The notes: generated by a model not told the origin, from the sequence alone. A DNA stretch of 64,000 nucleotides from Sphingomonadaceae bacterium (GCA_046348605.1 JAXMDW010000001.1:712739-776738), one strand, 5' to 3'; positions 46,999 through 63,725 are shown, counted from the stretch's first letter. Numbers and translations: made by a program.

Positions 46999-47010
46999 GC
47001 TGTTTACGCC

Positions 47011-48513
47011 CTAGCGATTTGGCGCGATGGCGTCTGCCAGAGAGTTGGGATCGCCCAGAGATTTAACGAATGCGCGGATGGCGGCCTCGGCAGGCGCGCC
47101 CTCCCTGTCCTCCGCGGAGATGAGAATTGCGATTGCGCGCTGGTCGCGCATCAGGAGTTTGGCTGTCATGGTGTCGAACTTGATTGCTGCGGCGCTCCCC
47201 GTCATCCCCGATCCGCCGACGCGATAGAAAGTCACGACATGCCGCCGCACCGGCCCCGGCGCAGTGATGATTTCGCCGCGCGCGTTCGAAGGCGCCCATG
47301 CGGGGGACGTCCATGCCCATTCGCCAGCCGGATCGACCGCGCCCTGCCCGAAACCAATCAGCTCGCGCCCTTCGGCCTGCCGATCATAAGCGATGATCGC
47401 TAGATCGACGATATGGCCGTTCCCATCAGCATAACGCGCCTGAAAATGCCGGTCGGCAGCCTCGAAATGCGGTGACCACGGATACGCCATCGGCGCATGA
47501 GCAGTTTGCCAGCCCTGAATTTCTGGTGCTTCGATCCGCGCCAGCCCTTTTGCACCGACTAGCGCGGACAGGTGACTATAGGCGGGGGCTGCCGCCATTA
47601 GGCCAAGCGCCAATGCTGCCGTCATCGAGCGCATAAATCTGTCAGCAGTTAGCTTGCGCATGCGCTCCACATCAATCCCATGCTCGCCCGGCATGCGATC
47701 GAAAAACGGCCATGCAGCGAGTATCACGCCTGCCATCACGATGGCGAAGAACAGCCAGCCCCACACGACATGATCGAAGCCCTGCGCGGTTTCTATCCCT
47801 CGCTTGTGCGCGACATAAATGGTCGCGAACGCACGCACGCCGTTGGCAAGCACGCAGGTGGCGAGCGCGAAAGCGAGGAAGAACCCCCGCCGCACCCAAG
47901 ACCGAAAACATACATTGCAGACAAGCACGGCATAGGCCGCCATCGCCACCACGAACTTCGCGCCAGAGCAGGCCTCGGCCACCTTGAAATAGCCATTGGG
48001 AATCGTGATGAACACGCCCTCGATATGCGCCGGTATCCCTACCAGACCGAGCAGCCCCATTGCCATCTTCGCAGTCAGAAGTTGCAGCGCGGGTTCCATC
48101 TCGCTGCCAATCGGGATCAGGAAGAACGCATAGAAGAGCGGGAACAGCAGCGCCCGCGTCAGTTGCGGCCCAAGACTTGCCGCCACGACGCCCTGAAGCA
48201 TCAGAATGAGTCCCGCATGGCGCAACACGCCAAGGCTCGCGGCATCGCCGAGCAGCCACACGAACGCGCCACCGCCGAGCCAGACGAGTCCCCATCCCCA
48301 AGTGCTCGGCTCCAGGGCGCGCAATATAGGCGCTCGCATATGCACCAGCCAGCCGATCAGCAGTGGGATGAACAGGCAATGCCCGTAAGTGGAGCTAGTC
48401 CACCAGATGCGCGCCATATCAAAGGCGTCATGATGGAACAGGGCGAGCACTGCGCCCGCGAGTATACCAAGCAAGAGCAGATACTCACGCCAGCGTTCAC
48501 CGGCGGATGTCAT
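47011..48513 (-). CDS. xrtA: Exosortase A with C-terminal EpsI-like domain
   Basis: Multi-TM protein with VAEACSG (catalytic Cys), NGVR (Arg) and DH..WGW (His); periplasmic C-terminal domain. Confidence 0.92.
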   Translation of the reverse strand: MTSAGERWREYLLLLGILAGAVLALFHHDAFDMARIWWTSSTYGHCLFIPLLIGWLVHMRAPILRALEPSTWGWGLVWLGGGAFVWLLGDAASLGVLRHAGLILMLQGVVAASLGPQLTRALLFPLFYAFFLIPIGSEMEPALQLLTAKMAMGLLGLVGIPAHIEGVFITIPNGYFKVAEACSGAKFVVAMAAYAVLVCNVCFRSWVRRGFFLAFALATCVLANGVRAFATIYVAHKRGIETAQGFDHVVWGWLFFAIVMAGVILAAWPFFDRMPGEHGIDVERMRKLTADRFMRSMTAALALGLMAAAPAYSHLSALVGAKGLARIEAPEIQGWQTAHAPMAYPWSPHFEAADRHFQARYADGNGHIVDLAIIAYDRQAEGRELIGFGQGAVDPAGEWAWTSPAWAPSNARGEIITAPGPVRRHVVTFYRVGGSGMTGSAAAIKFDTMTAKLLMRDQRAIAILISAEDREGAPAEAAIRAFVKSLGDPNSLADAIAPNR

Positions 48514-49742
48514 GACGCCTCGCCCAGCACTATGTCGCGCAGGGGGCTAAGCGTCGCCGCCCAAGCATAGCGCTGCTCCATACGCTTCCGCGCGGCCATA
48601 CCAAGAGTGGCGGCGCGAACAGGTTCAGCAATCAGCCGGAGAACCGCTTCCGCTTCCTCGCCGGGATCGGAGGCGATTACCAGATGTACGCTATCCGCCG
48701 CGTCTATCCCCTCGGCGGCTTGCGGACTGGCTACGACCGGGCGTCCCATCGCCATCGCTTCCAACACCTTGTTCTGGATGCCGCGCGCGATCCGCAAAGG
48801 CGCCACAACGACATCCGCCGCCGCCAGCCACCCCCGCACATCCGGCACGCCACCCGTCACGATCATGCCGGGCAGGTCCGCCAGCGCTGTAACCTCCGGC
48901 GTCGGATTGCGGCCCACTATAGCAAAAATCGCGCCGTCATGCGCCGCCCGGATCGCCGGAAACGCATCGCGCGCAAAGCTTGCCACCGCCTCGATATTCG
49001 GGCGGTAATCCATCTGCCCGGTGAAGACGATCAGCGGCGCGCCCGGCTTTTCTATCGCCTCGAACGCCGCCACTGGATTGAAGAAATCGAGATCGACACC
49101 ATTGTCGAGCGCGCGAATATCGGCTCCTTCAACACGGGCCGACTGCTGAAACATATCCGCCTCTGCCGCGCTCACAAACAGCGAGACATCAGCCCGTAGC
49201 GTCGTCTCGCGCTCGAACTCCATCAACACGCGGCCCTCGCGCCGGTTGACCCAGCCCATGACGCCGCCCTGCTCCGCACCATAAGCCGCATATTTGGCGC
49301 TGTCGAAATCGACGAAATCCATGATGAAGCGCACGCCCGTCGGCAGATCGCGCGGCACGAAATGCGCCATCTGAGCCGAGTAGGCGACAATCGCGCGGAT
49401 GGGCCGCTGGCGCAGAACCTGCCGCACCCATGCGTGCATCCGCGCGCTATCATACATCGCGACCAGCATCGGCTGGTGCCGGAGCAATCCGTTCAGCCCC
49501 GCCACCGCACGGGAACGCTCCCGCATCAGCACGCACTGGCTCGCGGTGAGCGCGGCCATATCCTCCGCAAAACTTATGTCCCGCGCATCGTCCGCAAAGT
49601 AGCCGACATGCACCGGGCCTATCTCCCTCAGCGCGTGCAGCATGTGATAGGAACGGATCTTGTCCCCCCGGTCCGGAGGGAACGGGATGCGGTGCACCAG
49701 AAACAGGATTTCGCCCCGCTCCTTCATGTCATGCTCCGTCAT
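48510..49742 (-). CDS. PEP-CTERM/XrtA system glycosyltransferase (GT4)
   Basis: HRIPFPPDRGDKIRS, GQMDYRPN, ARGIQNKVLEAMAM; start about 49742. Confidence 0.9.
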   Translation of the reverse strand: MTEHDMKERGEILFLVHRIPFPPDRGDKIRSYHMLHALREIGPVHVGYFADDARDISFAEDMAALTASQCVLMRERSRAVAGLNGLLRHQPMLVAMYDSARMHAWVRQVLRQRPIRAIVAYSAQMAHFVPRDLPTGVRFIMDFVDFDSAKYAAYGAEQGGVMGWVNRREGRVLMEFERETTLRADVSLFVSAAEADMFQQSARVEGADIRALDNGVDLDFFNPVAAFEAIEKPGAPLIVFTGQMDYRPNIEAVASFARDAFPAIRAAHDGAIFAIVGRNPTPEVTALADLPGMIVTGGVPDVRGWLAAADVVVAPLRIARGIQNKVLEAMAMGRPVVASPQAAEGIDAADSVHLVIASDPGEEAEAVLRLIAEPVRAATLGMAARKRMEQRYAWAATLSPLRDIVLGEAS

Positions 49743-49747
49743 GACGC

Positions 49748-50791
49748 CTAACCTAGTCCGCGCGAGATATAAGGACCAACAAAGCTCGCCACCGACAACG
49801 GCAGCTTCTTCCATAGCTCGACTTTGCGCTGATATTGCGGCGAGAGCGGATTGATGTCCCGCGCCTCGCATCCCGGCGCAGCGCGCGTCGCGTAGGTCAG
49901 CGGCTCCCCTTCCCAGCCCCAGGTCTTTTTCCACGCCGCGGGGCCGGTACCCACCTTGGAGCGACCGAAATCGAAAATTGTGCAACCCCGCTCGCGCGCA
50001 TAGCCCATCAAGCGGAAATAGCCGACCTCGTTCGAGCGCATCGCCCGCGCCGCATAAGCCGCGCCCTGATAATAGGGCATGCACACGCCACGGTGATAGA
50101 GCGAAAAGATGGTAGTGAGCGGCGCACCGTCCTTGCTGACCAGAAGGATATCGGCATCCTCTCCGAACGCAACCAGCACCTCGGAAAACAGCGCCTTGGG
50201 GAAAACCGGTGTGCCGAGGCGGTGCACATTCTCGGCGTAGAGGCGGTAATGGATTTCGCTCAGTCGCGCGCTGCGGCCGACCTCGACCGTGAGGCCATTG
50301 TCCAGTCCCTTGCGCACCTCCGCGCGATGTTTTCGCGGAATAGAAAGAAGCTGCGCTTCATCATTGATTTCTAATGGTTTAGAGAATCCTAGGTAGCTGT
50401 CGGCCTTCAGTCTCCACAATGATTGCGGCAGCGCTCCCCCGCGCAATTCTGCCGTCGGACAACTCTGCGCTTCCGCCAGTTTCCAGCACGCTTCTGCCAA
50501 TTCGTCGGCCACTAGAGCATCGTCTGTCAATATGCCGCCGTCGACAGCAAAACCGCTCGATACCAATACCCGGCCAAACAACGGCGAATGAATCAGGTTG
50601 AGCGGTAGAACGCCTGCAATCCTGCCGCCCTGACGGCACACAAGCATCAGCGCCTGCTGCCCGGTGCCTCGCGCCACCGCGCCGATCCATGCCGGGCGAT
50701 GAAAGGGCGTGGATGCGGGATGCGCAGCTATCCACGCCTCCAGCTCCGCCGCTTCCCGCGGGTCGTCCAGATTGGCGAGGGATATCGTCAT
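49748..50791 (-). CDS. FemAB-like XrtA/PEP-CTERM system GNAT-fold protein
   Basis: TPFHRPAW, RKHRAEVRKG, LGTPVF, FDFGRSK.GTG...K..WG. Confidence 0.88.
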   Translation of the reverse strand: MTISLANLDDPREAAELEAWIAAHPASTPFHRPAWIGAVARGTGQQALMLVCRQGGRIAGVLPLNLIHSPLFGRVLVSSGFAVDGGILTDDALVADELAEACWKLAEAQSCPTAELRGGALPQSLWRLKADSYLGFSKPLEINDEAQLLSIPRKHRAEVRKGLDNGLTVEVGRSARLSEIHYRLYAENVHRLGTPVFPKALFSEVLVAFGEDADILLVSKDGAPLTTIFSLYHRGVCMPYYQGAAYAARAMRSNEVGYFRLMGYARERGCTIFDFGRSKVGTGPAAWKKTWGWEGEPLTYATRAAPGCEARDINPLSPQYQRKVELWKKLPLSVASFVGPYISRGLG

Positions 50792-51657
50792 GACGCCGGC
50801 CAGCATGACGCGTCTTTCGTCTGATCCGCAAGAATGTCCTTAACCCGCCCCCAGCGAAACTCCCGGATCAGCCGCTCCAGCTTCGCGGCCGTGGTCGAAA
50901 GGTTGGTATAATGGCGCAAACGCGACTTTAATGGCGCATGCGCAACGCGCGGCTGATCGGGGTCGATCTCCCACGGGTGGAAATAGAAGATCGCCGGGCG
51001 TTCATCCTGCCGGTTCACCTGCCCCACCGCCCAGCGCGTGAACGCATAGGGCATCAGCCGGAAAAAGCCGCCGCCACCCGCTGCAACCGTCCGCCCCATT
51101 GCCCGCGCCGTCGTTACCGGCAATTCGACAAGTGGCGAGTCCGCGAGCGGTCGATAGGCAAAGCGCGGTGCCTCCGGCCAGCCATAATGATCGTGCCGAA
51201 CCGGCGCGACGCTACTGGAATATGTGTAACCTTCCTCAGCGAGGATCGCATGCGCCCAAGGCGTACGCGCATCAATCGAAAAGCTAGGCGCGCGATAGCC
51301 CTGCACCGGCACTGCGCCCGCCTGCTCCAGTAGCGCACGCGATTTGCGCAGGTCGGCGCGAAATTGCTCCGGTGTAAAAGTGAAAACCCGCTTATGGTCA
51401 TAGCCGTGGCTGGCAAGCTCATGCCCGCCTTTGACTATGCGACGTATGAGGTCCGGGTGCCGCTCCGCTACCCACCCCAGCGTGAAAAACGTCGCGCGGA
51501 CATTGGCGCGATCAAACAGCTCCAGCAGAAAGTCGGTGTTATCGGCAACCCGCGACTCGCAGCTTTCCCAATCGACGCGTTTTATTGTGGTCTCAAAGGC
51601 ACCAACCTGAAACCAGTCCTCAATATCAACAGACAAGGCATTGATAATATATGACAT
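50788..51657 (-). CDS. XrtA system polysaccharide deacetylase
   Basis: SVDIEDW, ATFFTLG, HELASHGY.H, YRAPSFS, YFHPWE. Confidence 0.92.
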   Translation of the reverse strand: MSYIINALSVDIEDWFQVGAFETTIKRVDWESCESRVADNTDFLLELFDRANVRATFFTLGWVAERHPDLIRRIVKGGHELASHGYDHKRVFTFTPEQFRADLRKSRALLEQAGAVPVQGYRAPSFSIDARTPWAHAILAEEGYTYSSSVAPVRHDHYGWPEAPRFAYRPLADSPLVELPVTTARAMGRTVAAGGGGFFRLMPYAFTRWAVGQVNRQDERPAIFYFHPWEIDPDQPRVAHAPLKSRLRHYTNLSTTAAKLERLIREFRWGRVKDILADQTKDASCWPAS

Positions 51658-51695
51658 CAATGCTCACTCTCGGTTCACAAGCAGCTTCGCAGCGC

Positions 51696-52856
51696 TCAAG
51701 CCGCGCGGACGCCCGCATTCTCATTTTCGACCCAGTCGACCAGCAGGTTGAGCACCTTGCGCAGGGCCACCTCCTGCTCGTCGCTGCGTGCTTCGAGACT
51801 GTTGACGCGCGCCTCGATGCCGTCAAGCCGTTCGCCTATCAGGCGCTGTAGGTTGGCGCGGTCGCCATTGAGGCTGAGTGTGCTGCGCAAAGTGTCCAGC
51901 TCCTCGCGGATACGATGCAGTTCAAGCTCCTCGGTCGCCAGATTGGCCTCGATCGCTTCCACGACCGGCAGAGGATCATCCGAAGGTTCCATGGCAGAAA
52001 TTATGTGCTGCGGCTCAGTAGCAGGAGCGACTTCCTCAACCCCATGCTCTCCCAGCCCCATATCGGCGGCCACTGCCTCGACCGCGCTTGCATCGATTTC
52101 GGCAAGGTGATCGACCGCGCCGAGCAGCATCACGCGGCTCATCAGCGCGTTGATCCGCCGTGGCACGCCATCGGTCGCGGCATAGATCGCCGCAAAGGCA
52201 TCGCCGGTAAAATGCGGATTATCCTGCCAGCCGACCAACGACAGGCGATGGCGGATATAAGGCTCCACCTCGCTCGCCAGCATCGGTTCGAGATGGTGCG
52301 TCGCGATCACGCGCTGGCGGAGCTGCTCCAGCTCCGGCGCCGCAAGCAGATCGCGGAATTCCGGCTGGCCGAGCAGAAATATCTGGAGCAACGCCTGCCC
52401 GCCGAGCTGGAAATTGCTCAACATCCGTAGCTCCTCGATCGCGGAGACGGCAAGCCCCTGCGCCTCATCGACGATCAGCAGCGTCCGCAGGCCTTTCCGC
52501 GCCTGTGCATGGAGAAACGCCTCGATCCGCTGCAACAGTTGCGCTTTAGGCAATGCCTCCTCGGTGATGCCGAATTGCTGAGCCACGAGACGGAGCAGAT
52601 CGTCTCCCTCCACCTGCGTCGATACGATCTTCACCGCCGTCAGCCGTTGTGGGTCGATGGTCGACATCACATGGCCGACGAGCGTCGTCTTGCCCGCGCC
52701 GATGTCTCCCGTAATGACGATGAAGCCCTCGCCCTGCGCGAGGCCATAGCCGAGATAGGAGAGCGCCTTCCTGTGCGTCGCGCTTTCATAATAGAAATGC
52801 GGGTCCGGCGTCAGCTGAAACGGGCGACCCTGCAGCGCATAATATTGATCATACAT
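51696..52856 (-). CDS. XrtA/PEP-CTERM system ExeA-like ATPase
   Basis: PFQLTPDP, GDIGAGKTT, VDEAQ, LGQPE, QLRQR, GVPRRIN; coiled-coil C-terminus. Confidence 0.9.
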   Translation of the reverse strand: MYDQYYALQGRPFQLTPDPHFYYESATHRKALSYLGYGLAQGEGFIVITGDIGAGKTTLVGHVMSTIDPQRLTAVKIVSTQVEGDDLLRLVAQQFGITEEALPKAQLLQRIEAFLHAQARKGLRTLLIVDEAQGLAVSAIEELRMLSNFQLGGQALLQIFLLGQPEFRDLLAAPELEQLRQRVIATHHLEPMLASEVEPYIRHRLSLVGWQDNPHFTGDAFAAIYAATDGVPRRINALMSRVMLLGAVDHLAEIDASAVEAVAADMGLGEHGVEEVAPATEPQHIISAMEPSDDPLPVVEAIEANLATEELELHRIREELDTLRSTLSLNGDRANLQRLIGERLDGIEARVNSLEARSDEQEVALRKVLNLLVDWVENENAGVRAA

Positions 52857-52894
52857 GGTTTTCAGTCTCCACGAGGCTCCGCGCCTCGGCTGGT

Positions 52895-54487
52895 TCAGAA
52901 TTCATAGCGCACCCCCACCTGCCCCAGCAGGTTGACGATGGTTTCAATGGTTTCGGTATCGAGCGCATCGAGGCCAAGCGAAGCTTGCGCGCTCAAACGG
53001 CGACCGAAGATGCGGTTATAGGTTGCGTAGGCACCATAATTGGTGACGTCGATCCCTGCACCGCCGGCATCGAGATAGTTCGCATAGAGCGCGCCACCGA
53101 GGCTCGATTGCATGTCGAGCTTGTAACCGCCGAAGAGCTGCCCGAAATAATAGTCGTTATGCGTGCCGTCTGCGGCCGCGAAGATCGAGGCGCGCGGTGC
53201 GATGAACTTGCGCTGTGACCAGCCCGCCGCCGCGCCCCAGTTCCAGCGCCGCCCGCCATTCCAGCCATATTGCGCGATGACGCCGCGATGGCGGAAGTTG
53301 GAGCCGTTGATCGCCGCCAGCGTATCGTTGAGGCAGGTGCCACCGCTCTGGCCGTTGACGCAGCCGGTCAGATCGCCACTGAACGGGTTGCGCGCGGCGG
53401 TGAAATCGGTCGGGATCGCGATCAGATTGCCGTGCAGCGCGCGGCCAAAGCTGTCGATCCGGTCGAAATAGACGAGCTGGAACAGGCTGTGCGGCGTCGC
53501 GTGCCAGCTGAAACTGGCGGAATAGTGCATGCTGTCGTAGCGCTCACCGATCCGCGCCTCGAAGCTCGTGCGGCGGCTGGGCCGCCACAGCACGCCCGCA
53601 TCCCAGATGAAACCATCGACATCATAGGCGACAAGGCGGGGCACCGACGTATCCGAAATCAACCTGCCCGTACGATCCAGCACCGGGTTGCCCGACGTAT
53701 CGAGCAGGGCCGCGCGCTGGTCGATCTTGATATCTTCATATCCAACACCACCCACCAGCGCGAGCGTGTAGGTGATGGGCACAGTAATGTCCGCCCGCAC
53801 CCATTTGTCCTGATAGCGCTGGTCAAGCTCGCTCGCGTCCTCGCGTTCCCATCCCGCACCCAAAGCCCAACCGATCGGCAATGGGCCGGGCTGCATGCCT
53901 ACGGACGCCGTCGCGGTCTGGTAGACGCTCTCATCGAACACGCCGAAAGCGGGAACCCCGCCGACGTTGAAATTCACATCGTCTTCCAGCTTTGTGTAGC
54001 CGATGCGATAGGCTGCATTGACCGAAAGATCGTCGATATGGGTAGTAAGCGTCGGCCCCGCATAGGCCGAAAAGACGTGCGATACCGAGTCTCCTGCCGA
54101 AATCAGCGAACCATTGGCGCTCGACAACCCATCGGTGCGCACCCGTGTCGCAAGCGCACCGCCTTCGATGCTGAGCTTTTTGGGGATGACGGCATAGCGC
54201 CCCATGACGAGGCCAGAGAGAATGTCGCTATCCGGTGCCTTCTTGCCCCAGCCGAACTGATGCTCATAGCGTGCATCCGCGCGCACCTCGGTGCGGCTGG
54301 TGGTAAGTGTCGCATCGACGCCGATAGCGACTGAGGTGTAGGTCAGCACATCTCCGCCCGCGCCCTTCAAATTCGCAAGAACAGTCTGGTCCGCCTCGAT
54401 ATAGGGATGCACCTCTGTGCGCGCCTCAGCAACGCCTGCCACAAGGGCGAGAGCAAGCGCACCAGAGGAGCAGAGGAGGAGGCGCAT
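52895..54487 (-). CDS. PEP-CTERM system-associated outer-membrane beta-barrel protein
   Basis: Signal peptide, amphipathic beta strands, C-terminal VGVRYEF; position in the XrtA locus. Confidence 0.75.
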   Translation of the reverse strand: MRLLLCSSGALALALVAGVAEARTEVHPYIEADQTVLANLKGAGGDVLTYTSVAIGVDATLTTSRTEVRADARYEHQFGWGKKAPDSDILSGLVMGRYAVIPKKLSIEGGALATRVRTDGLSSANGSLISAGDSVSHVFSAYAGPTLTTHIDDLSVNAAYRIGYTKLEDDVNFNVGGVPAFGVFDESVYQTATASVGMQPGPLPIGWALGAGWEREDASELDQRYQDKWVRADITVPITYTLALVGGVGYEDIKIDQRAALLDTSGNPVLDRTGRLISDTSVPRLVAYDVDGFIWDAGVLWRPSRRTSFEARIGERYDSMHYSASFSWHATPHSLFQLVYFDRIDSFGRALHGNLIAIPTDFTAARNPFSGDLTGCVNGQSGGTCLNDTLAAINGSNFRHRGVIAQYGWNGGRRWNWGAAAGWSQRKFIAPRASIFAAADGTHNDYYFGQLFGGYKLDMQSSLGGALYANYLDAGGAGIDVTNYGAYATYNRIFGRRLSAQASLGLDALDTETIETIVNLLGQVGVRYEF

Positions 54488-54492
54488 GCGCC

Positions 54493-55449
54493 TTATCCCT
54501 CCCGCCCGTAATAACTGCCGAAGCGGCGGCCGCTGGCGGAGAATTTGACGCCATTCAGCAATAATTGCACCTGTGGGCAGGCTTTCAGCAGCTCCGCCGC
54601 ATCGCGCAGCGCCGTCTCGGTCGTGCGGTCTGCGCGGACGATGAGCAGTGTCAGATCGACATTGGCGGCAAGGATCGACGCCGCAGACGCCGCCAGCAAC
54701 GGCGCAGAGTCCATGATGACGATCCGCTCGGGTCTTGCCGAGACGAGCGCTTTCATGACGTCTTTCATCCGGCCCGACGATAGATATTCGGCGTCCTGTA
54801 TATTGCCTGTTCCTGCGGGCAGCACGGCGAGGCCTGAGAGATCGGTGCGGATCACATGATCCTCGACACGGAGCGCCGGGTTGGCGAGCACATCGAGCAG
54901 GCCCGCCTCAGCTTTCAGGCCGAGCAATTCTGCCACCTCCCGCTTTGCCACATCGGCATCGACGAGCAGCACCTCAAGCCCGCTTTCCGTCGCCAGCGAC
55001 AGCGCGAGGTTGACCGCGCAAAACGTCTTGCCTTCGCCTGGATGCGCCGAGGCGACCAGCACGACCTTGCCGTCATCATTCTCAGCCGCGCCACGTATTT
55101 CTGCCAACAGCTCACGCTTGATGATGCGGAATTCCTCGGCAAGGCCTGAAATCGGCGCACCGGGAACGAGGAAGCCATGCTCAGCCAACCCCTCGCGGCC
55201 CACAGGCACAGCGCGGGTCGACCAATCTGCCGCGCGCGACTTCGCAGGCGCGGAGACCAGGGATGAAGGCGTAACCACCGGCGGCGGCGGGATCATCTCC
55301 GCCGGAACTTCCAGCGGCGGCAGATTATTGCCCTTCAGCGCGCTGCGAAAATCGAACATGTCGGAGGCGCGCTCCAGCAAGCCCTTGGCAGGCTGGCGAG
55401 GGTCACGATGCGGAAAATCCTGTTTACCCATGTCCGTTTTTCCGTTCAT
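54493..55449 (-). CDS. Polysaccharide biosynthesis tyrosine autokinase (split Wzc, kinase part)
   Basis: EEFRIIK, GEGKT, LLVDAD, DSAP, C-terminal SYYG. Confidence 0.85.
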   Translation of the reverse strand: MNGKTDMGKQDFPHRDPRQPAKGLLERASDMFDFRSALKGNNLPPLEVPAEMIPPPPVVTPSSLVSAPAKSRAADWSTRAVPVGREGLAEHGFLVPGAPISGLAEEFRIIKRELLAEIRGAAENDDGKVVLVASAHPGEGKTFCAVNLALSLATESGLEVLLVDADVAKREVAELLGLKAEAGLLDVLANPALRVEDHVIRTDLSGLAVLPAGTGNIQDAEYLSSGRMKDVMKALVSARPERIVIMDSAPLLAASAASILAANVDLTLLIVRADRTTETALRDAAELLKACPQVQLLLNGVKFSASGRRFGSYYGREG

Positions 55450-56957
55450 GCCAAGCCGCGCTGAATGAACTCAACGACTATAAGCAGCAGACATGCAGCG
55501 CCCAACGCGCCGCTTGCGCCTGCGAAAATCTTCAGCCGATGCTTGCGCGCCTCGATTTGCGCCGCATTCAATGTCTCCGTCACCGTGCCAAGGACCGGCA
55601 GGCCCGAAGCCACCGCCAGCCGCGCAGCCGTCGGGAAGGTCGGGCGAACCTGCCCAAACAGGAATGCCGCGCCTACACCTGCGCCAATGCCGACGATCAA
55701 CACGCCAACCAGCAACAGCGGCCGGTTGGGCGAGGCAGGCGCACTCGGCATGCTCGGCGGATCGATGATGCGGAAACTCGCACCCTTGGTCTCGCTCTGT
55801 ACGTCGCCGCGCATACGCACATCGCCCCGATCGCTAAGCAGCTTGTCATATTGCGCCTTCAAGACGTCATAATCCCGGTCCAGCCGCTCGCCTTCCGAGG
55901 CAAGGCCGGGGTCGGCGATCTGCCGCGCCGTAACAGCCGCGAGATCCGATTCGATCTGCGCCTTGCGACCGACCAGCGCCTGCACCGCCGCCGCGCGCTC
56001 CGCCTGCATGGATTTGATCGAGAGATAGGCCGGATTGGGCGTACCGCCACCGCTAGCCGCGCTGCCACCCGCCGCCTTCAACGCCGCGATCTGGCGCTTC
56101 AACGCTACTACATCGGGGTGATTATCCGTCCAGCCGCGCGCTTTCGCCGTGGCAAGCTCGCCCTGCGCCTGCGCCAGCGCCGAAGGGCTACCGCCACCGC
56201 CGCCCGCTATCGTCGAGGGTGTTCCGGCGAGCTGACCGTTCATCGCCGCGAGTGCGCTCTGCGCGCCCATGAGCTGAGACTCGATCTGATTGAGTTCCGT
56301 CTGCGCTGCCACCATGCGATCAGAGATTGAACCCGCACCGGGTAAAATGCCTGCAAACTGCTGGTTGAACTCGACCCGCTTCTTCTCCGCTTCGGCCAGC
56401 GCCTTCCCTGTATCCGCAATCTGCTGATCGAGGAACGCCAGCCCCTGTTTCGTCTCGTCACGGTTGCCGGTGATGTTTTCCTGCTGGAAAATATCGAGCA
56501 GCTTCTGCGTGATCTGGTTGGCGAGCTTGGCGTTGGTGCGGTCGGAATTGCCGCTGTCCGCCATCGTCGTCGTGATCTCGAACAGGTTGTCCTCGGTCGA
56601 GACGATCGCGATCCTGTCCTTCAGCGAAGCAGCCCGCGCCGCGATGTCAGCATCGTTCGCCACCGTCCCGGCAAGGTCGGTGCCGCGCACGATTTTTATG
56701 AGATTATCTGCGCTGCCCAAAGTCTGGCGGATCGCGTCGAGGTTTTTCTGCTGTTCGACACTCGAAATGCCAATCTTGTCCTGAATGACGGACTGCGTGG
56801 CGACGTAGACCTTCGCCTTCGACTCATAGGCATTGGGAATCAGCGACACTGCCAGCCAGCCCAGCGCACACACGGCCCAGGCCACGCACAGCGCCAGCCA
56901 GCGCCGGTTCCATACGCCGTGCAGCGCGATCAGCAGTTCATCATAAAGGCTTGGCAT
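55446..56957 (-). CDS. XrtA system polysaccharide chain-length determinant (co-polymerase)
   Basis: Two TM segments flanking a coiled coil; TDNHPDV, FRIIDPP..P..P..PNR. Confidence 0.9.
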   Translation of the reverse strand: MPSLYDELLIALHGVWNRRWLALCVAWAVCALGWLAVSLIPNAYESKAKVYVATQSVIQDKIGISSVEQQKNLDAIRQTLGSADNLIKIVRGTDLAGTVANDADIAARAASLKDRIAIVSTEDNLFEITTTMADSGNSDRTNAKLANQITQKLLDIFQQENITGNRDETKQGLAFLDQQIADTGKALAEAEKKRVEFNQQFAGILPGAGSISDRMVAAQTELNQIESQLMGAQSALAAMNGQLAGTPSTIAGGGGGSPSALAQAQGELATAKARGWTDNHPDVVALKRQIAALKAAGGSAASGGGTPNPAYLSIKSMQAERAAAVQALVGRKAQIESDLAAVTARQIADPGLASEGERLDRDYDVLKAQYDKLLSDRGDVRMRGDVQSETKGASFRIIDPPSMPSAPASPNRPLLLVGVLIVGIGAGVGAAFLFGQVRPTFPTAARLAVASGLPVLGTVTETLNAAQIEARKHRLKIFAGASGALGAACLLLIVVEFIQRGLA

Positions 56958-56975
56958 CAGGCTTCGTCCAGTCCG

Positions 56976-57623
56976 TCAGAACATGCTTTCGGGGATGATG
57001 ATAACATCGCCCGGCGCGAGCAGCACGTTGGCCTTGGTGTCGCCATGCTTCACCAGATCGTTGATGCGGACCTTATATTCCTTCTGCTTGCCGGTCTGCT
57101 TGTCGAACCGCACGAGGCGCGCGCGGTTGCCGGCCGCATATTCGGAGAGGCCGCCGACAGAGATCATTGCATCAAGCAAGGTCATATTGGCGCGATAGGG
57201 AATGGCGGCGGGCTTTTCTGTCGCGCCGACGATGCGCACCTGCTGGCTGTAGGTGCCAGAGAAATTGTTGACGATCACCGAGACGAGCGGGTTCTGGATA
57301 TATTGCGACAGCGCAACCTTGATGTCCTCCGCCAGCACCTTGGGCGTCTTGCCGACGGCGGGTAGATCGCTGATCAGCGGCGTGGTGATGCGGCCATCGG
57401 GGCGCACCTGCACCTTCGCTCCCAGCTCCGGGTTGCGCCATACGAAGATGGTGAGCTCATCCAGCGGCCCGATCACATATTCCTCGCCCGGCCCTTCCTG
57501 GCTCGCGACGAAGGAGGCGGGGGGAAGCTGCGCACTGGGAGCCGTACCACCGCCGGAGCAACCGGCAAGTAGTAAGGCAGGCATAGCCAAGCCCATGATA
57601 TAGTTCATCAAATTCGCACGCAT
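56976..57623 (-). CDS. XrtA/PEP-CTERM polysaccharide export lipoprotein (Wza/OPX)
   Basis: Lipobox LAGC, YVIGPLD.L, VRPDGRI, L.PGDVIIIPES. Confidence 0.92.
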   Translation of the reverse strand: MRANLMNYIMGLAMPALLLAGCSGGGTAPSAQLPPASFVASQEGPGEEYVIGPLDELTIFVWRNPELGAKVQVRPDGRITTPLISDLPAVGKTPKVLAEDIKVALSQYIQNPLVSVIVNNFSGTYSQQVRIVGATEKPAAIPYRANMTLLDAMISVGGLSEYAAGNRARLVRFDKQTGKQKEYKVRINDLVKHGDTKANVLLAPGDVIIIPESMF

Positions 57624-57778: not shown

Positions 57779-59014
57779 TTATTCGCCGACCAACAATTCC
57801 AGCGCGGACTTGTGACCCAGGAACGCTGCAGGCGATGCGCTGGCGCCATAAGCACCCGCGAGGAAGATCGCGACAAGATCGCCCGGCTCCGCTGGCGGGA
57901 GCGACACCTTGTCCGCCAGCCGGTCCAGCGGTGTGCAGAGACACCCCTCGATCGTCACCGGCTCTTCTGCCCCTTCCAGACCGAACTTGTTGGCAATCGC
58001 GACTGGATAATTGCGCCGCACCACCGTACCGAAATTGCCCGATGCGGCGAGTTGATGATGTAGGCCGCCGTCGACAATCGCGAATGTCTCGCCGTGACTC
58101 TGCTTCACATCGACGACCCGCGTCAAATACACCCCCGCCTCCGCCACCAGATATCGCCCCAGTTCCAGCGCGAACGCAGAGCCGCGCAGGCTATCTGGCG
58201 GAAGGCTCAACACTTCCTCCAGCGCAAGGCCGATGGCCTTCACGTCGAGCGGCAGATCGCCGGGGAAATAAGGCACACCAAAGCCCCCGCCGATATTGAC
58301 CAGCGGCGGAACCGCGCCCACCTCGTCCGAAAGCCGCGCCGCCAGCGCAACCGTCGCCGCCTGAGTCTCGATCAGCGCCGCAGGATCGAGCGCCTGACTG
58401 CCCGCGAAAATATGCCAGCCGCGCCAGTCCGCCCCTGCGCCGATCATCTGCTTCGCGAGTGCCGCCGCCCGATCCGCATCAATGCCGAACGGCTTTGCCC
58501 CGCCGCCCATCTTCATGCCCGATCCCTTGAGATCGAAGTCCGGGTTCACGCGCACCGCAAGCCGGGGCGTGACACCTACCGTCTCCGCGATCTTCAGTGC
58601 CCGCGCAGCCTCGCCTTCCGACTCGAGGTTGATCGTCACGCCCGCCTGTATCGCCGCACGCAGCTCATCATCGCGCTTGCCCGGCCCGGCAAAGCTGATC
58701 TGCTCTGCTGCCATGCCAGCGCCGAGCGCCATCTCCAGCTCGCCGCCAGACGCGATGTCGAACCCATCGACCAGCTCGGTCATCGCCGCGAGCAAGGGCG
58801 CATAGGGGTTGGCCTTCATCGCATAATGCAGATGCAATCCCTCCGGCATCGCCTCGCGCAACAACGCGACCTTGGCACAGACCACACCCATGTCATAAAC
58901 GAACACAGGCGTATCGCCCGCCTCATCCACCAGCGCAGCCGTACCGCAGCCGCCTATCAACAGCATACCCTCTTCCGCCTCGAACCATGGCGGTATCGGC
59001 CCCATCGGCTTCAT
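57779..59014 (-). CDS. PLP-dependent decarboxylase (fold III), exosortase A system-associated
   Basis: YAMKANP, DIASGGE, FAGPGK, HIFAGSQ, NIGGGFG, ELGRYLV, GCLCTPLD, GAYG. Confidence 0.9.
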   Translation of the reverse strand: MKPMGPIPPWFEAEEGMLLIGGCGTAALVDEAGDTPVFVYDMGVVCAKVALLREAMPEGLHLHYAMKANPYAPLLAAMTELVDGFDIASGGELEMALGAGMAAEQISFAGPGKRDDELRAAIQAGVTINLESEGEAARALKIAETVGVTPRLAVRVNPDFDLKGSGMKMGGGAKPFGIDADRAAALAKQMIGAGADWRGWHIFAGSQALDPAALIETQAATVALAARLSDEVGAVPPLVNIGGGFGVPYFPGDLPLDVKAIGLALEEVLSLPPDSLRGSAFALELGRYLVAEAGVYLTRVVDVKQSHGETFAIVDGGLHHQLAASGNFGTVVRRNYPVAIANKFGLEGAEEPVTIEGCLCTPLDRLADKVSLPPAEPGDLVAIFLAGAYGASASPAAFLGHKSALELLVGE

Positions 59015-60558
59015 GCCGGCTGGCCTTCCGTGAGAGAGCCCCAGTTGTTAGCCAGCTCCACGCGGTCGATCTTGCCATTTGGGTTGCGCGGGAACTGGTC
59101 CACCACAAGGATGTCAACGGGCATCATGAAATTCGGCAATTCCTTTTTGAGATAATCATGCAGCGCGTCCAGCACCCCTGCATGCCCTTCTGCAATGCGC
59201 ACCAACAGCAATACTGCCTGCCCCAGCCGCGCATCCGGCACGCCCAGCGCCACCGCTTCGGCTACGCCTTCAACAGACTGCGCCGCTTCCTCGACCTCGG
59301 TCGGACTGATGCGGTTGCCGGCGGATTTGATCATCGCATCCTCGCGCCCGACAAAATACAACAAGCCCTCGGCATCGCGCCGCACCGTATCGCCAGACCA
59401 CACCGCTCGCCCATCATAGCTCGATGACGGCGGCGCGGGCCGGAACCGCTCGGCGGTGCGGATCGGGTCGTTCCAGTAGCCTTGCGCTACTAGCGGCCCA
59501 CAATGCACCAGTTCACCAGGTTCGTCATCGTCCGTCAGGCTGCCATCAGGGCGACAGACAAGGATTTCCGCATGCGGGATCGCGCGGCCCATACTCTCCG
59601 GGTGTGTAGCGACCAGCTCCGGCGGCAGATAGGTGGAGCGAAACGCCTCGGTGAGGCCATACATCGGATAGATGTCCGCTTCGGGGAACAGTGTGTTCAG
59701 CCTCCCGATCAGTGCTTTCGTCAACGCGCCACCGCTGTTGCTGATGCGCTTTAGCCGCTCCGCCGTCTCTTCCGGCCATTCCGCCTCGGCAAGCTGCACC
59801 CAGAGCGGCGGTACGCCGGCGAGTGTCGTGATCCGCTCACGCTCGACCGCTTTCACAACATCACGCGCGGTCAGATAATCAAGCGGCACCACCGTTCCGC
59901 CCGCCGCCCATGTCGAGAAAAGCTGGTTCTGCCCATAATCGAAACTAAACGGCAACACCGCGAGCACGTTGTCCTGCGGCGTCAACCGCAGATACTCCGC
60001 CACCGACACCGCGCCGAGCCACAGGTTCGCGTGGCTCAGCATCACGCCCTTCGGCCTGCCGGTGGAGCCGGAGGTATAGAGGATCGCGGCAAGATCATCG
60101 GGTTTAGCGCTGGATGGTGCAAGCGCCTCACATTCCATTGACGCGGGCAGCACCGCGTCCTCGGATATAGACCGGCAACCGGCAGGCATATCGCCCGCCT
60201 CCAGCGTCGCGAGCCGGGAAGAGGTCGCCACCAGCAGCGCCGCGCCGCTATCCGTCAATATATGCGCCACTTGCGCGCGTTTCAGCAGCGGGTTGATCGG
60301 CACATGGATTAACCCCGCCCGCGCCGCCGCCAGTGGCATCAGGCAGGCGATCTGCCCCTTCGCCACCCAGCTCGCCACCCGCTCTCCCGGCGCGATGCCA
60401 AGGCCCAGCAGCCATGTTGCCAAACGCCCAACCGCCTGTTCCAACTCGGCATAAGTCAGCGACCCAGCCTTGCCCGCAATCGCAACTGCCACCGCCGCGC
60501 CCAAGGCGGGCAGATGATCGATGGGCCGCATCGGCAATTCACTTAACCCCATTTCCAT
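59011..60558 (-). CDS. AMP-forming (adenylation) ligase, exosortase A system-associated
   Basis: YTSGSTGRPKG, FSFDYG, YGLTEAFRS, SGD, GR.D.MIK, PRNPNGKIDR. Start uncertain (60531-60558). Confidence 0.9.
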   Translation of the reverse strand: MEMGLSELPMRPIDHLPALGAAVAVAIAGKAGSLTYAELEQAVGRLATWLLGLGIAPGERVASWVAKGQIACLMPLAAARAGLIHVPINPLLKRAQVAHILTDSGAALLVATSSRLATLEAGDMPAGCRSISEDAVLPASMECEALAPSSAKPDDLAAILYTSGSTGRPKGVMLSHANLWLGAVSVAEYLRLTPQDNVLAVLPFSFDYGQNQLFSTWAAGGTVVPLDYLTARDVVKAVERERITTLAGVPPLWVQLAEAEWPEETAERLKRISNSGGALTKALIGRLNTLFPEADIYPMYGLTEAFRSTYLPPELVATHPESMGRAIPHAEILVCRPDGSLTDDDEPGELVHCGPLVAQGYWNDPIRTAERFRPAPPSSSYDGRAVWSGDTVRRDAEGLLYFVGREDAMIKSAGNRISPTEVEEAAQSVEGVAEAVALGVPDARLGQAVLLLVRIAEGHAGVLDALHDYLKKELPNFMMPVDILVVDQFPRNPNGKIDRVELANNWGSLTEGQPA

Positions 60559-60580
60559 GACTTCGCGTTATAGCATCGAC

Positions 60581-61582
60581 ATGAACCGGGATAGAGACAT
60601 TTCCCCGCCGCGCAAAGTCGCGGGCGAAGAGGCGGGCTTTCACAGGCGCGCATGGTTCGACATGCTCGCCCGCCACTGCTTCTCCGGTCAGCGTGTCATG
60701 ATACCGGAAGCCCGCATCGGCAGCGCCAGCGCATTTCTGCCGCTGGTGGAGGAGAAAGGCCGGCTCTCATCGCTTTCCAATTACTACAGCTTCTCCTACG
60801 CGCCGATCTTCGAGGGGGTAGAAAAGCCGGAAGAGCGCGAAAAGCTGATAACCCAGATCGCTGCCGATCTGCGCCAGTCACAGGGCCGCATCAGCCTCTA
60901 TCCGCTGATCGACGACGATGACGGCCTACCGGATATGCTCCGCCAAGCCTTCACAAAAGCAGGATGGATCGCCATCCTTTCCTTAGCGGGCAGCAATCAT
61001 ATCATTGACGTAAACGGTAGGAAATTCGCCGCCTATTGGAAGGGTCGCCCCGGCGCACTGCGTTCCTCGGTAAGGCGGAAGGGCAAGAGCGCCCGCTATC
61101 GTTATGAGATTCATGAGCGGATGGATACAGCGCTCTGGGGTGAATATTTCGCCATCTATGCGGCAAGCTGGAAAGAGGCGGAACCCTATCCCGACATAGT
61201 CCGCGCCATCGCCGAAGAAGCAGGTGAGCGCGGTGCTTTACGCCTAGGCATCCTTCGTGACGGAGACCGCGCCGTCGCCGCGCAGCTCTGGACGATCGAA
61301 GGCGACACCGCCTGCATTCACAAGATTGCGCACGACACCAGCGAAGATGCGCGGTCGCCCGGCACCCTGCTCAGCCACCATATGTTCGCGCATATGATCG
61401 ATATCGAGAAGGTGTTTCGGATCGACTATGGCACCGGCAACAATGCCTACAAGCGGGACTGGATGGAACACGCCCGCCCGATGATGCGGCTCGATTGCTT
61501 CAACCCCTCCCACCCGCGCCAGTGGCTCCTCGCATTAAAAACCCGCATTTCCCAGCTTGTCGGGCGAGCCTCTTACAGCTAG
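60581..61582 (+). CDS. GNAT-fold (CelD/BcsL-like) acyltransferase
   Basis: SNYYS, Y..SWK..E, AAQLW, KIAHD...SPGTLL, IDYGTGNNAYKRDW. Confidence 0.8.
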   Translation: MNRDRDISPPRKVAGEEAGFHRRAWFDMLARHCFSGQRVMIPEARIGSASAFLPLVEEKGRLSSLSNYYSFSYAPIFEGVEKPEEREKLITQIAADLRQSQGRISLYPLIDDDDGLPDMLRQAFTKAGWIAILSLAGSNHIIDVNGRKFAAYWKGRPGALRSSVRRKGKSARYRYEIHERMDTALWGEYFAIYAASWKEAEPYPDIVRAIAEEAGERGALRLGILRDGDRAVAAQLWTIEGDTACIHKIAHDTSEDARSPGTLLSHHMFAHMIDIEKVFRIDYGTGNNAYKRDWMEHARPMMRLDCFNPSHPRQWLLALKTRISQLVGRASYS

Positions 61583-61613
61583 AGGCGCCCTAATGGGTGG
61601 CAATTCTCACAAA

Positions 61614-61886
61614 ATGGGTGCGAATCATTCCGATACGGCGCACCGCCTGCGCCAGACGTTGCGCGACGCACTGTCTCTCAAGAACTCTGTAGAACTTGAG
61701 GCGGAAACGCCGCTGTTCGGCGCACTGCCGGAGCTGGACTCCATGGCCGTTGCGACGCTGCTGACCGAGATCGAAGACCGCTTCGGAATTGTGATCGACG
61801 ATGACGATGTCGATGGAGACACCTTCGAGACGTTCGGCGCGCTGACGGCGTTCGTCGAAGATAAGCTCGCCGCGCGCCGCCCCTGA
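61614..61886 (+). CDS. Stand-alone acyl/aminoacyl carrier protein
   Basis: Acidic protein of about 90 aa; LFGALPELDSMAV (phosphopantetheine Ser), IEDRFGI. Alternative start at 61593. Confidence 0.9.
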   Translation: MGANHSDTAHRLRQTLRDALSLKNSVELEAETPLFGALPELDSMAVATLLTEIEDRFGIVIDDDDVDGDTFETFGALTAFVEDKLAARRP

Positions 61887-61889
61887 TCC

Positions 61890-62855
61890 TTACTCCGCGG
61901 CTTGCGCGGCCTCGAATTCTGCCTCAGCCAGAAAACGCTCGGCATCCAGCGCCGCCATGCAGCCCATGCCCGCTGCCGTAACCGCCTGACGATAGACCTG
62001 ATCTGCCACGTCCCCTGCCGCGAACACACCAGGAATAGCGGTCTTGGAGCCGCCCTTCTCCACCACGAGATATCCGTTATCGAGTTCCAGCTTGCCCGCG
62101 AACAGCTCTGTCGATGGCTTGTGGCCGATCGCGACGAAAGCGCCGTCCGCCGCTTCGTGCGATGCCTCACCGGTCACGGTATCGATGAGATCGACGCCAA
62201 CCAGCCCTTCCGGGTCACCACCGCCGACAAAGCGCGCGACCTTCTTGTTCCACAACACCTTGATATTGGGGTGCGCAAACAGCCGCTCCTGCAAAATCTT
62301 CTCCGAACGCAGCGAATCGCGCCGGTGGATCAGGGTCACGTCCTGAGAGTGGTTGGTGAGGTAGAGCGCCTCTTCAACAGCGGTATTGCCGCCGCCGATC
62401 ACCACAACCTTCTTGCCGCGATAGAAAAAGCCGTCGCAGGTCGCGCAGGCGGAGACGCCCTTGCCCGAAAGCGCCTGCTCCCCTTCCACACCAAGCCATT
62501 GCGCCTGCGCACCGGTGCAGATGACAAGCGTATCGGCAGTGTAAACATCGCCGCCATCGCCGGTGAGCCGGAACGGGCGCTTGGAAAAATCGACATCGAC
62601 GATCTGGTCCCAGATCATCTCGGCGCCGACATGCTCGGCCTGCGCCTGCATCTCCTGCATCAGCCACGGCCCCTGAATCACTTCGCGAAAGCCGGGATAA
62701 TTCTCGACATCGGTGGTGATGGTGAGCTGGCCGCCCGGCTGCATGCCCTGCACCACGAGCGGCTTCATCCCCGCGCGCGCGCCATAAATGGCGGCAGACA
62801 GGCCTGCCGGGCCGGAGCCAAGGATCAACATGCGTGTGTGTCTGGTGGTGGTCAT
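61890..62855 (-). CDS. trxB: Thioredoxin reductase
   Basis: GSGPAG, GGQL, CATCDG, GGGNTA.EEA, AAGDV.D..YRQA. Confidence 0.97.
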   Translation of the reverse strand: MTTTRHTRMLILGSGPAGLSAAIYGARAGMKPLVVQGMQPGGQLTITTDVENYPGFREVIQGPWLMQEMQAQAEHVGAEMIWDQIVDVDFSKRPFRLTGDGGDVYTADTLVICTGAQAQWLGVEGEQALSGKGVSACATCDGFFYRGKKVVVIGGGNTAVEEALYLTNHSQDVTLIHRRDSLRSEKILQERLFAHPNIKVLWNKKVARFVGGGDPEGLVGVDLIDTVTGEASHEAADGAFVAIGHKPSTELFAGKLELDNGYLVVEKGGSKTAIPGVFAAGDVADQVYRQAVTAAGMGCMAALDAERFLAEAEFEAAQAAE

Positions 62856-63009: not shown

Positions 63010-63050
63010 ATTATGAATACCCCATGTCATCGCCCCAAAGGAACCGCTTT

Positions 63051-63725
63051 ATGGCCTATGCATATGCTAATACACCGCCCCTCGCCGCGCAGGATCCCAT
63101 CATCCTGACCGTCCCCGGCCTCGGTAACAGCGGGCCGCGCCATTGGCAGTCCCTATGGGAGAATGACCGCGACAATATGGAGCGGATCGAGATGGAGGCG
63201 TGGGATGCGCCGGTGCGCACGCTGTGGGTCAACAAGCTCAACCTCGCCATCCGTCGCTATGCGGACCGGCCCGTCATACTGGTGGCTCACAGCCTTGGCT
63301 GCCTCGCAGTGGCGTGGTGGGCTCAGTATGAGCGCCCCGCTTATGGCACGCCTGTCGCGGGTGCTCTGCTGGTCGCGCCGCCGGAGGTCGATGTCGCGCC
63401 ACTGAAGCAGGAATTGCTGCCCTTCGCGCCGACGCCGACCATCCATCTGCCCTTCCCCTCGATCCTCGTCGCCAGCCGAAACGATCCCTTCATGACGTTC
63501 GAGCGCGCCCGCCGCCTCGCCACTTTCTGGGGCAGCGGCTTCGTCGATGCTGGCGCCGCAGGTCATATCAACGCCGACTCGGCGCTTGGTAAATGGAGTT
63601 ATGGCCGCAGCCTGCTCGACCGCTTGGTGAACCACGTGCAGGGCAGTCGCGCGCAGCAACCGCTGTTCGACGATCGCGAAGTTCATTATGCGGCAGACTA
63701 CCCGCTTTGGAGCAGCACCCTATAG
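63051..63725 (+). CDS. RBBP9/YdeN family alpha/beta hydrolase
   Basis: VPGL.NSG..HWQ, AHSLGC, LVAPP, SRNDP, GHIN; AAGGA RBS before ATG 63051. Confidence 0.9.
   Translation: MAYAYANTPPLAAQDPIILTVPGLGNSGPRHWQSLWENDRDNMERIEMEAWDAPVRTLWVNKLNLAIRRYADRPVILVAHSLGCLAVAWWAQYERPAYGTPVAGALLVAPPEVDVAPLKQELLPFAPTPTIHLPFPSILVASRNDPFMTFERARRLATFWGSGFVDAGAAGHINADSALGKWSYGRSLLDRLVNHVQGSRAQQPLFDDREVHYAADYPLWSSTL

Follow-up and report, generated by a model that had tools for sequence, protein, structure and literature searches.

A cassette of four genes at positions 57779-61886 of a 64,000-nucleotide stretch of a Sphingomonadaceae genome (GCA_046348605.1 JAXMDW010000001.1:712739-776738, one strand; the whole stretch is called the window below) most plausibly encodes a carrier-protein-dependent pathway that makes a β-alanyl unit, which a transferase of the GNAT type would pass on; we give this reading a probability of roughly 0.55. 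The cassette encodes a ligase, a pyridoxal phosphate (PLP)-dependent decarboxylase, the GNAT and a small carrier protein, and lies beside the exosortase A (XrtA) polysaccharide operon (Table 1). The enzymes could act in three steps: (i) the ligase would adenylate L-aspartate at the β-carboxyl group, treating it as a β-amino acid in the manner of VinN and BolO, and the aspartate would then be thioesterified to the phosphopantetheine arm of the carrier; (ii) the decarboxylase would strip the free α-carboxyl group on the carrier, leaving β-alanyl-S-carrier; (iii) the tandem GNAT would move the β-alanyl group to an amine or a hydroxyl group in the XrtA polysaccharide or in a lipid-linked precursor, for example to a sugar amine freed by the deacetylase of the operon, and the glycan would thereby gain a free primary amine. 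Step (i) is predicted from specificity residues and homology, and step (ii) from homology to BtrK, VinO and BolN; as predictions from homology, residue patterns and genomic context, both are well supported. Step (iii) is the weakest of the three and is suggested by the gene order, the predicted fold and the absence of another candidate in the locus.

Ligase and decarboxylase are members of catalogued families, as an earlier note on this DNA had stated: the ligase scores 647 bits against TIGR03098 (curated cut-off 592) and the decarboxylase 552 bits against TIGR03099 (curated cut-off 478). Among proteins of solved structure, the best single-domain matches of the ligase are 8xjz_C, an uncharacterised ‘peptide synthetase’ (231 bits), and VinN (191 bits); the best match among coenzyme A (CoA) ligases is a malonyl-CoA synthetase (173 bits), and the fatty acyl-CoA ligases also score below VinN. 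LgrA, with 305 bits, was considered as the closest relative and set aside, because two adenylation domains (131 + 172 bits) contribute jointly to its score. The specificity positions of VinN map onto those of GrsA as D230=D235, F231=A236, S299=A301 and K330/R331=I330/C331, and its β13-β14 loop has one residue fewer than that of α-amino-acid domains (PMC11253843). At the GrsA positions, located by motif anchors, the window ligase carries D235, Y236, S301 and R330, and HMMER places a gap of 1-2 residues in its β13-β14 loop relative to both LgrA adenylation domains. All four VinN-type determinants are present: Asp235, a bulky residue at 236, Ser301 and, in a shortened loop, a basic residue. The two motifs singled out earlier, FSFDYG and YGLTEAFR, are both found in the ligase, and in an alignment of 30 family members SFD and TE-x-x-R are invariant; the four acyl-CoA ligase paralogs of the window genome have PLFH, which the ligase does not, and no Arg at these positions. 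These features support the prediction, already made in the earlier note, of an amino-acid adenylation enzyme, here specified as VinN-type, rather than a fatty acyl-CoA ligase. Two pocket subtypes occur in the family, namely SFDYG with NSGGA, which includes the window ligase, and SFDAG with NTGGR (A236, T301 and an extra Arg; L041, L042, L045, L047 and L048), which occurs in some β/γ-proteobacterial XrtA loci; judged by these residues, the two may have different substrates.

For the decarboxylase, the nearest solved structure is BtrK, matched over nearly its full length with 239 bits and deposited as L-glutamyl-[BtrI acyl-carrier protein] decarboxylase, followed by an SbnH-type enzyme (134 bits) and by diaminopimelate (DAP) decarboxylases (at most 129 bits). 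When 36 family members were aligned with the LysA of the window genome, which is separately encoded, the XrtA-family enzymes were all found to carry DGG(L/M)HH...R(R/K)NYP and LCTPxD, like BtrK, whereas in LysA the motifs are MNDLARPAMY and CESGD, those of DAP decarboxylases. Because the BtrK motifs replace the DAP motif throughout the family, the enzyme is assigned to the BtrK type and not to the lysine pathway. The likeness to BtrK put forward earlier is thereby supported, and action on a carrier thioester is predicted.

The distribution of the genes was surveyed in 401 genomes of the phylum, a sample in which several families are represented and related genomes are not independent. Above the cut-offs, the decarboxylase occurs in 27 genomes and XrtA in 30; 25 have both, two the decarboxylase alone and five XrtA alone. 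In 19 of the 20 loci fetched from other genomes the ligase gene adjoins the decarboxylase gene, so the arrangement of the cassette is not due to chance, and the carrier gene lies beside them in 17 of 20. The trio of ligase, decarboxylase and carrier is also kept in sub-cut-off relatives outside XrtA loci. The expectation that all four genes co-occur with xrtA thus holds in part: the trio travels together and with XrtA, and the GNAT, absent from many xrtA genomes, is not universal (it is present in five of nine loci of the same family and in two distant loci). In two genomes, G245 (complete and of the same family) and G168, TIGR03099 is matched over the cut-off, whereas the thresholds applied gave no match to XrtA. 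In addition, a decarboxylase with about 280 bits to TIGR03099 and the motif GG(T/I)NHFRRPAA is encoded in some 100 small genomes of a single family (L073-L075), with no ligase or carrier gene nearby; it represents a distinct branch of the clade and is uncharacterised.

For the GNAT, the only family matched is Pfam Acetyltransf_6 (PF13480; residues 181-312). It has no NCBIfam match, is not PF02388, PF09924 or TIGR03019 by sequence, and gave no significant profile match to the FemAB-family protein (TIGR03019) of the operon. Its AlphaFold2 model (mean predicted local distance difference test score 89) is a tandem GNAT, and the top neighbours in the PDB, according to Foldseek, are MprF, FemX and Sbb17/Sba18 (E ~1e-11, template-modelling score 0.5-0.6). 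The designation as ‘GNAT’ in the earlier note stands with respect to the acetyltransferase-family match and has to be corrected to a tandem GNAT of FemX/MprF fold; according to the model, this is an aminoacyl-transferase fold and not that of an acetyltransferase or of FeeM. The carrier gene follows immediately downstream of the GNAT gene in relatives of 31-67% identity, and in one such context neither a ligase nor a decarboxylase gene lies within 8 kb. An operon of GNAT, carrier, Peptidase_S15-like hydrolase and Abhydrolase_6 genes was encountered in L085:8001-11053 and L086, with no ligase or decarboxylase gene within 8 kb, which suggests that GNAT/carrier/hydrolase and ligase/decarboxylase are separable units. 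Informative fusions were also sought among the longer GNAT relatives (700-1100 residues; e.g. P0128, P0167, P0170, P0175 and P0235), and these proved to consist solely of the same unit, repeated in tandem two or three times.

In most related loci two α/β hydrolases, kin of TIGR03101 and TIGR03100, come after the carrier gene. They occur in every one of the 9 other loci from this bacterial family, with both genes separating the carrier gene from the flank, and in most β/γ-proteobacterial loci. In the window genome (2.38 Mb, 88% complete) neither TIGR03100 nor TIGR03101 has a match over the cut-off, and the two hydrolases appear to have been cleanly lost in this clade. The hydrolase-less four-gene form abutting trxB is found again in Sphingobium sp. 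DEHP117 and in two metagenome contigs (~67% GNAT identity), and it is therefore regarded as a stable variant rather than a product of decay. As the GNAT is the sole cassette enzyme able to unload the carrier in this form, its role as the transferase, put forward in the earlier note, is modestly favoured. Just beyond trxB, at 63024-63725 (+), lies a gene for a 233-residue PF06821 serine hydrolase, which was considered as a stand-in for either hydrolase and rejected, since BLAST found no similarity to either; in two metagenome relatives the region beyond trxB is fragmented and contains a PIN/RHH toxin-antitoxin pair.

The substrate could be glutamate instead of aspartate: the ligase would then activate its γ-carboxyl group and the decarboxylase would yield a γ-aminobutyryl (GABA-yl)-S-carrier, as in butirosin synthesis. 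BtrK, the solved decarboxylase closest to that of the window, acts on γ-glutamyl-S-BtrI, and the existence of two ligase pocket subtypes means that substrates may differ. However, loading of glutamate in butirosin synthesis falls to the ATP-grasp enzyme BtrJ and not to an adenylation enzyme; the window ligase fits the aspartate determinants of VinN, the bulky residue at 236 and the short loop among them; and BolN, which is also BtrK-like, acts on an aspartate thioester (PMC7756342). A relative at L063:6598-14472 (G022:C15) bears on the same question. Its cassette comprises, in this order, the ligase, a fused B12-binding/MutE glutamate mutase that overlaps the ligase stop by 4 bp, the decarboxylase and a PIG-L sugar de-N-acetylase/methyltransferase; glycosyltransferase genes lie alongside, a carrier gene and after it a glycosyltransferase gene diverge, and the whole is a glycan locus of non-XrtA type. 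Matches to the glutamate mutase E chain occur in three of the 401 genomes, and none was found in the window genome. Because glutamate mutase produces 3-methylaspartate, this relative would have to load an Asp-type substrate, and in a glycan locus; the mutase makes sense in this cassette only if glutamate is not the substrate. The locus looks like a pathway from 3-methylaspartate to 3-aminoisobutyryl-carrier for a sugar polymer. Both the VinN-like pocket and this mutase favour aspartate, and hence a β-alanyl unit, for the window cassette. Of the two amino acids proposed in the earlier note, aspartate is thus retained as the preferred one, and glutamate with a GABA-yl product is considered unlikely.

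The remaining alternatives concern the fate of the unit or the chemistry as a whole. In one of them the GNAT is not the off-loading enzyme; being FemX-like, it would use an aminoacyl-tRNA to acylate the amine of carrier-bound β-alanine and so add a protecting or extending residue, according to the logic of VinM/BtrJ, and the unit would be passed on by, for example, the FemAB-family protein of the operon or XrtA. Its top structural neighbours MprF, FemX and Sbb17/Sba18 are all aminoacyl-tRNA-dependent, the two- and three-fold tandem GNAT fusions suggest stepwise additions, and the butirosin pathway protects its ω-aminoacyl amine. The vicenistatin pathway likewise N-protects the amine of an ω-aminoacyl-carrier (PMC11284099). 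Yet the cassette of this clade, with the hydrolases absent, offers no other off-loading enzyme. Enzymes of the GNAT superfamily, moreover, commonly accept carrier thioesters (acyl-homoserine lactone synthases, FeeM, HlyC), and a tRNA-dependent role is possible rather than expected. Considerably less probable is a lipid route, in which the ligase, as a fatty acyl-AMP ligase, would load the carrier, an acyltransferase would form either an N-acyl amine or an N-acyl amino acid, and the decarboxylase would work on the free or N-acylated amino acid. N-acyl amino acid synthases were tied to exosortase loci (Craig, Cherry and Brady 2011, as cited in passages of PMC8776678 and PMC11072679), and the corresponding acyltransferase TIGR03694 occurs in four of the 20 other loci, some β/γ-proteobacterial cassettes among them. 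TIGR03694 had no match in the window genome at its 88% completeness, though, and the ligase has the amine-binding Asp and the pocket Arg, and no PLFH; the GNAT model shows an aminoacyl-transferase fold and not that of FeeM. The lipid and β-alanyl ideas are compatible if N-acylation by the synthase takes place on carrier-bound β-alanine, as in bolagladin synthesis (PMC7756342). Finally, meso-diaminopimelate might be loaded via one carboxyl group and decarboxylated distally to lysyl-S-carrier. The decarboxylase does sit in the DAP-decarboxylase clade, and the pocket Arg of the ligase could hold a distal carboxylate; with the DAP-binding motif (RPxxY, CESGD) lost, BtrK scoring ~100 bits above any DAP decarboxylase, and the route being pointless where lysine is available, this is the most improbable of the proposals.

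Several points weigh against the proposed aspartate-to-β-alanyl pathway itself. For the XrtA-associated members the entire scheme is drawn from homology and context, and the specificity residues of the ligase were placed by the GrsA equivalences of a review, motif anchors and HMMER rather than by superposition on VinN. BtrK itself acts on glutamate, and the pocket subtype with A236 and T301 hints at substrate variation. The structural neighbours of the GNAT all take aminoacyl-tRNA donors and not carrier thioesters. The query used here detected no GNAT in five complete genomes from the window's own family, all of which retain ligase, decarboxylase, carrier and hydrolases, and most loci carry the two hydrolases in place of the GNAT or beside it. 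In the literature searched, no amino-acylated XrtA polysaccharide was found.

The closest precedents come from natural product biosynthesis. In Burkholderia gladioli, BolO, BolC and BolN load aspartate via its β-carboxyl group on a free carrier and decarboxylate it with a BtrK-like enzyme; BolO was assigned as the adenylating enzyme for the β-carboxyl group from the same residue pattern, and a bolN knockout was not rescued by β-alanine (PMC7756342). Bolagladin synthesis thus shares with the window the combination of VinN-like adenylation enzyme, free carrier and BtrK-like PLP decarboxylase, in a proteobacterium, but there the unit is N-acylated and primes a non-ribosomal peptide synthetase (NRPS) for a lipodepsipeptide. 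The window cassette has no NRPS or polyketide synthase (PKS), heads an exosortase A operon and has a tandem GNAT as the next enzyme. VinN/VinL/VinO, together with starter modules of the FlvN/L/O type, display the same three-step logic; the window ligase shares the VinN determinants (D235, a bulky 236, S301 and a basic residue in the short loop), and VinO decarboxylates only after the thioester has been formed (PMC11284099). In contrast to the vicenistatin cluster, the window has no equivalents of VinM, VinK or VinJ, no glutamate mutase and no PKS, and its decarboxylase is closer to BtrK. Partners of macrolactam or NRPS starter units, such as an amine-protecting ligase, an acyltransferase to a PKS or NRPS and a deprotecting peptidase, were not found: the open reading frames around the cassette are all XrtA polysaccharide or housekeeping genes, without PKS or NRPS. 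In butirosin synthesis by BtrI/BtrJ/BtrK (with BtrH and BtrG), a carrier-tethered acidic amino acid is likewise decarboxylated and the ω-aminoacyl group moved to a sugar amine; loading by an ATP-grasp enzyme, glutamate as the substrate and the transferase BtrH, which is not a GNAT, set it apart.

Other parallels lie in surface polymers. The DltABCD system for D-alanylation in Gram-positive bacteria brings an amino acid to a surface polymer by means of an adenylation enzyme and a small carrier, and in doing so adds a free amine. AlmEFG, which glycylates lipid A in Vibrio cholerae, also employs an adenylation enzyme and a small carrier. On-carrier decarboxylation occurs in neither, however, and the transferase class differs: no DltB (MBOAT), DltD or LpxL-type AlmG is among the annotated genes of the locus, the search for DltB and DltD having been confined to it. 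A Dlt-like modification of surface charge, as put forward in the earlier note, is a possible purpose of the window cassette. FemX, MprF and Sbb17 share the tandem-GNAT fold predicted for the window GNAT, which differs from them in belonging to PF13480 and in being genetically coupled to a carrier protein instead of tRNA. With the exosortase A-associated set TIGR03098/03099/03100/03101 the window agrees in that both scores exceed their cut-offs and the adjacent genes lie beside XrtA, but its clade has an Acetyltransf_6 tandem GNAT instead of the two hydrolases. Full-text literature searches returned no paper in which the XrtA ligase or decarboxylase is given a reaction, and both genes go unmentioned in Haft 2006. 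The chemistry as such is known from vicenistatin, bolagladin and butirosin; in the literature searched, no paper was found that links it to the catalogued XrtA families.

The genes of the cassette form two divergent pairs, and the earlier description of their coordinates and strands is borne out by the open reading frames. Ligase stop and decarboxylase start share an ATGA, which accounts for the 4-bp overlap recorded there. The ‘tens of bp’ between the divergent pairs are about right and depend on the choice of start: ligase and GNAT range from a 2-bp overlap (CATG, 60556-60559) to a distance of 25-49 bp. The GNAT reading frame spans 60521-61582 (+), with the start used in the table being that of the gene callers in public collections (100% match to P0005); its closest homologs belong, by name, to the Sphingobium group, in which the window genome is placed on this basis. 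For the carrier, the reading frame spans 61557-61886 (+) and the likely start is the ATG at 61593, with a GAGG 7 nt upstream. The DSM motif reported for the carrier is indeed present, and in the family alignment its D-S is invariant. trxB runs towards the carrier gene, and 3 bp separate the two stop codons (61884-61892).

On the other side, the cassette adjoins the XrtA polysaccharide genes as had been described: the export gene TIGR03027 (56976-57623) follows the decarboxylase gene after 155 bp, the operon continues to 45106, and XrtA lies ~10 kb downstream of ligase and decarboxylase within one operon run. The operon encodes an export protein, a chain-length determinant, a Tyr kinase, an outer-membrane protein, an ATPase, a deacetylase, a FemAB-family protein, a GT4 glycosyltransferase, XrtA-EpsI and an amidotransferase. 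Its NCBIfam matches are TIGR03027, 03007, 03018 (below the curated cut-off), 03015, 03006, 03019, 03087, 03109 and 03108; the TIGR03016 match of the outer-membrane protein is weak.

Table 1. Genes of the cassette and the adjoining operon, in window positions.
Feature	Position	Strand	Description
Decarboxylase (TIGR03099)	57779-59014	-	411 aa; PLP-dependent fold-III, BtrK-like
Ligase (TIGR03098)	59011-60558	-	515 aa; stand-alone adenylation enzyme, predicted VinN type; alternative start 60531
GNAT	60557-61582	+	341 aa; tandem-GNAT transferase, Pfam Acetyltransf_6, FemX/MprF-like predicted fold
Carrier	61593-61886	+	97 aa; PP-binding match; phosphopantetheine-site Ser in LPELDSMAV
XrtA polysaccharide operon	45106-57623	-	NCBIfam matches; context of the cassette

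The accessory genes of exosortase A occur in many proteobacteria, environmental and floc-forming ones, and to our knowledge their families have been named for years without assigned chemistry. The pathway from aspartate to a β-alanyl unit would turn families that are so far only names into simple, assayable chemistry. From it one would expect an exopolysaccharide or anchor that is amino-acylated and carries amines, and it may also bear on what exosortase joins its PEP-CTERM substrates to. A further-reaching and rather speculative idea is that the cassette, beyond adjusting charge, installs a primary-amine nucleophile: a β-alanyl arm, carried by the polysaccharide or by a lipid-linked precursor, would be used by exosortase A to resolve its acyl-enzyme, and PEP-CTERM proteins would become covalently linked to the exopolysaccharide. 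If true, this would be a Gram-negative counterpart of sortase A and the Fem-built pentaglycine branch of lipid II, and it would explain both the close tracking of XrtA by the trio and the presence of Fem-fold transferases in the locus. The hydrolase-less form of the Sphingobium group would be the smallest version of the pathway and, as such, the easiest to reconstitute.

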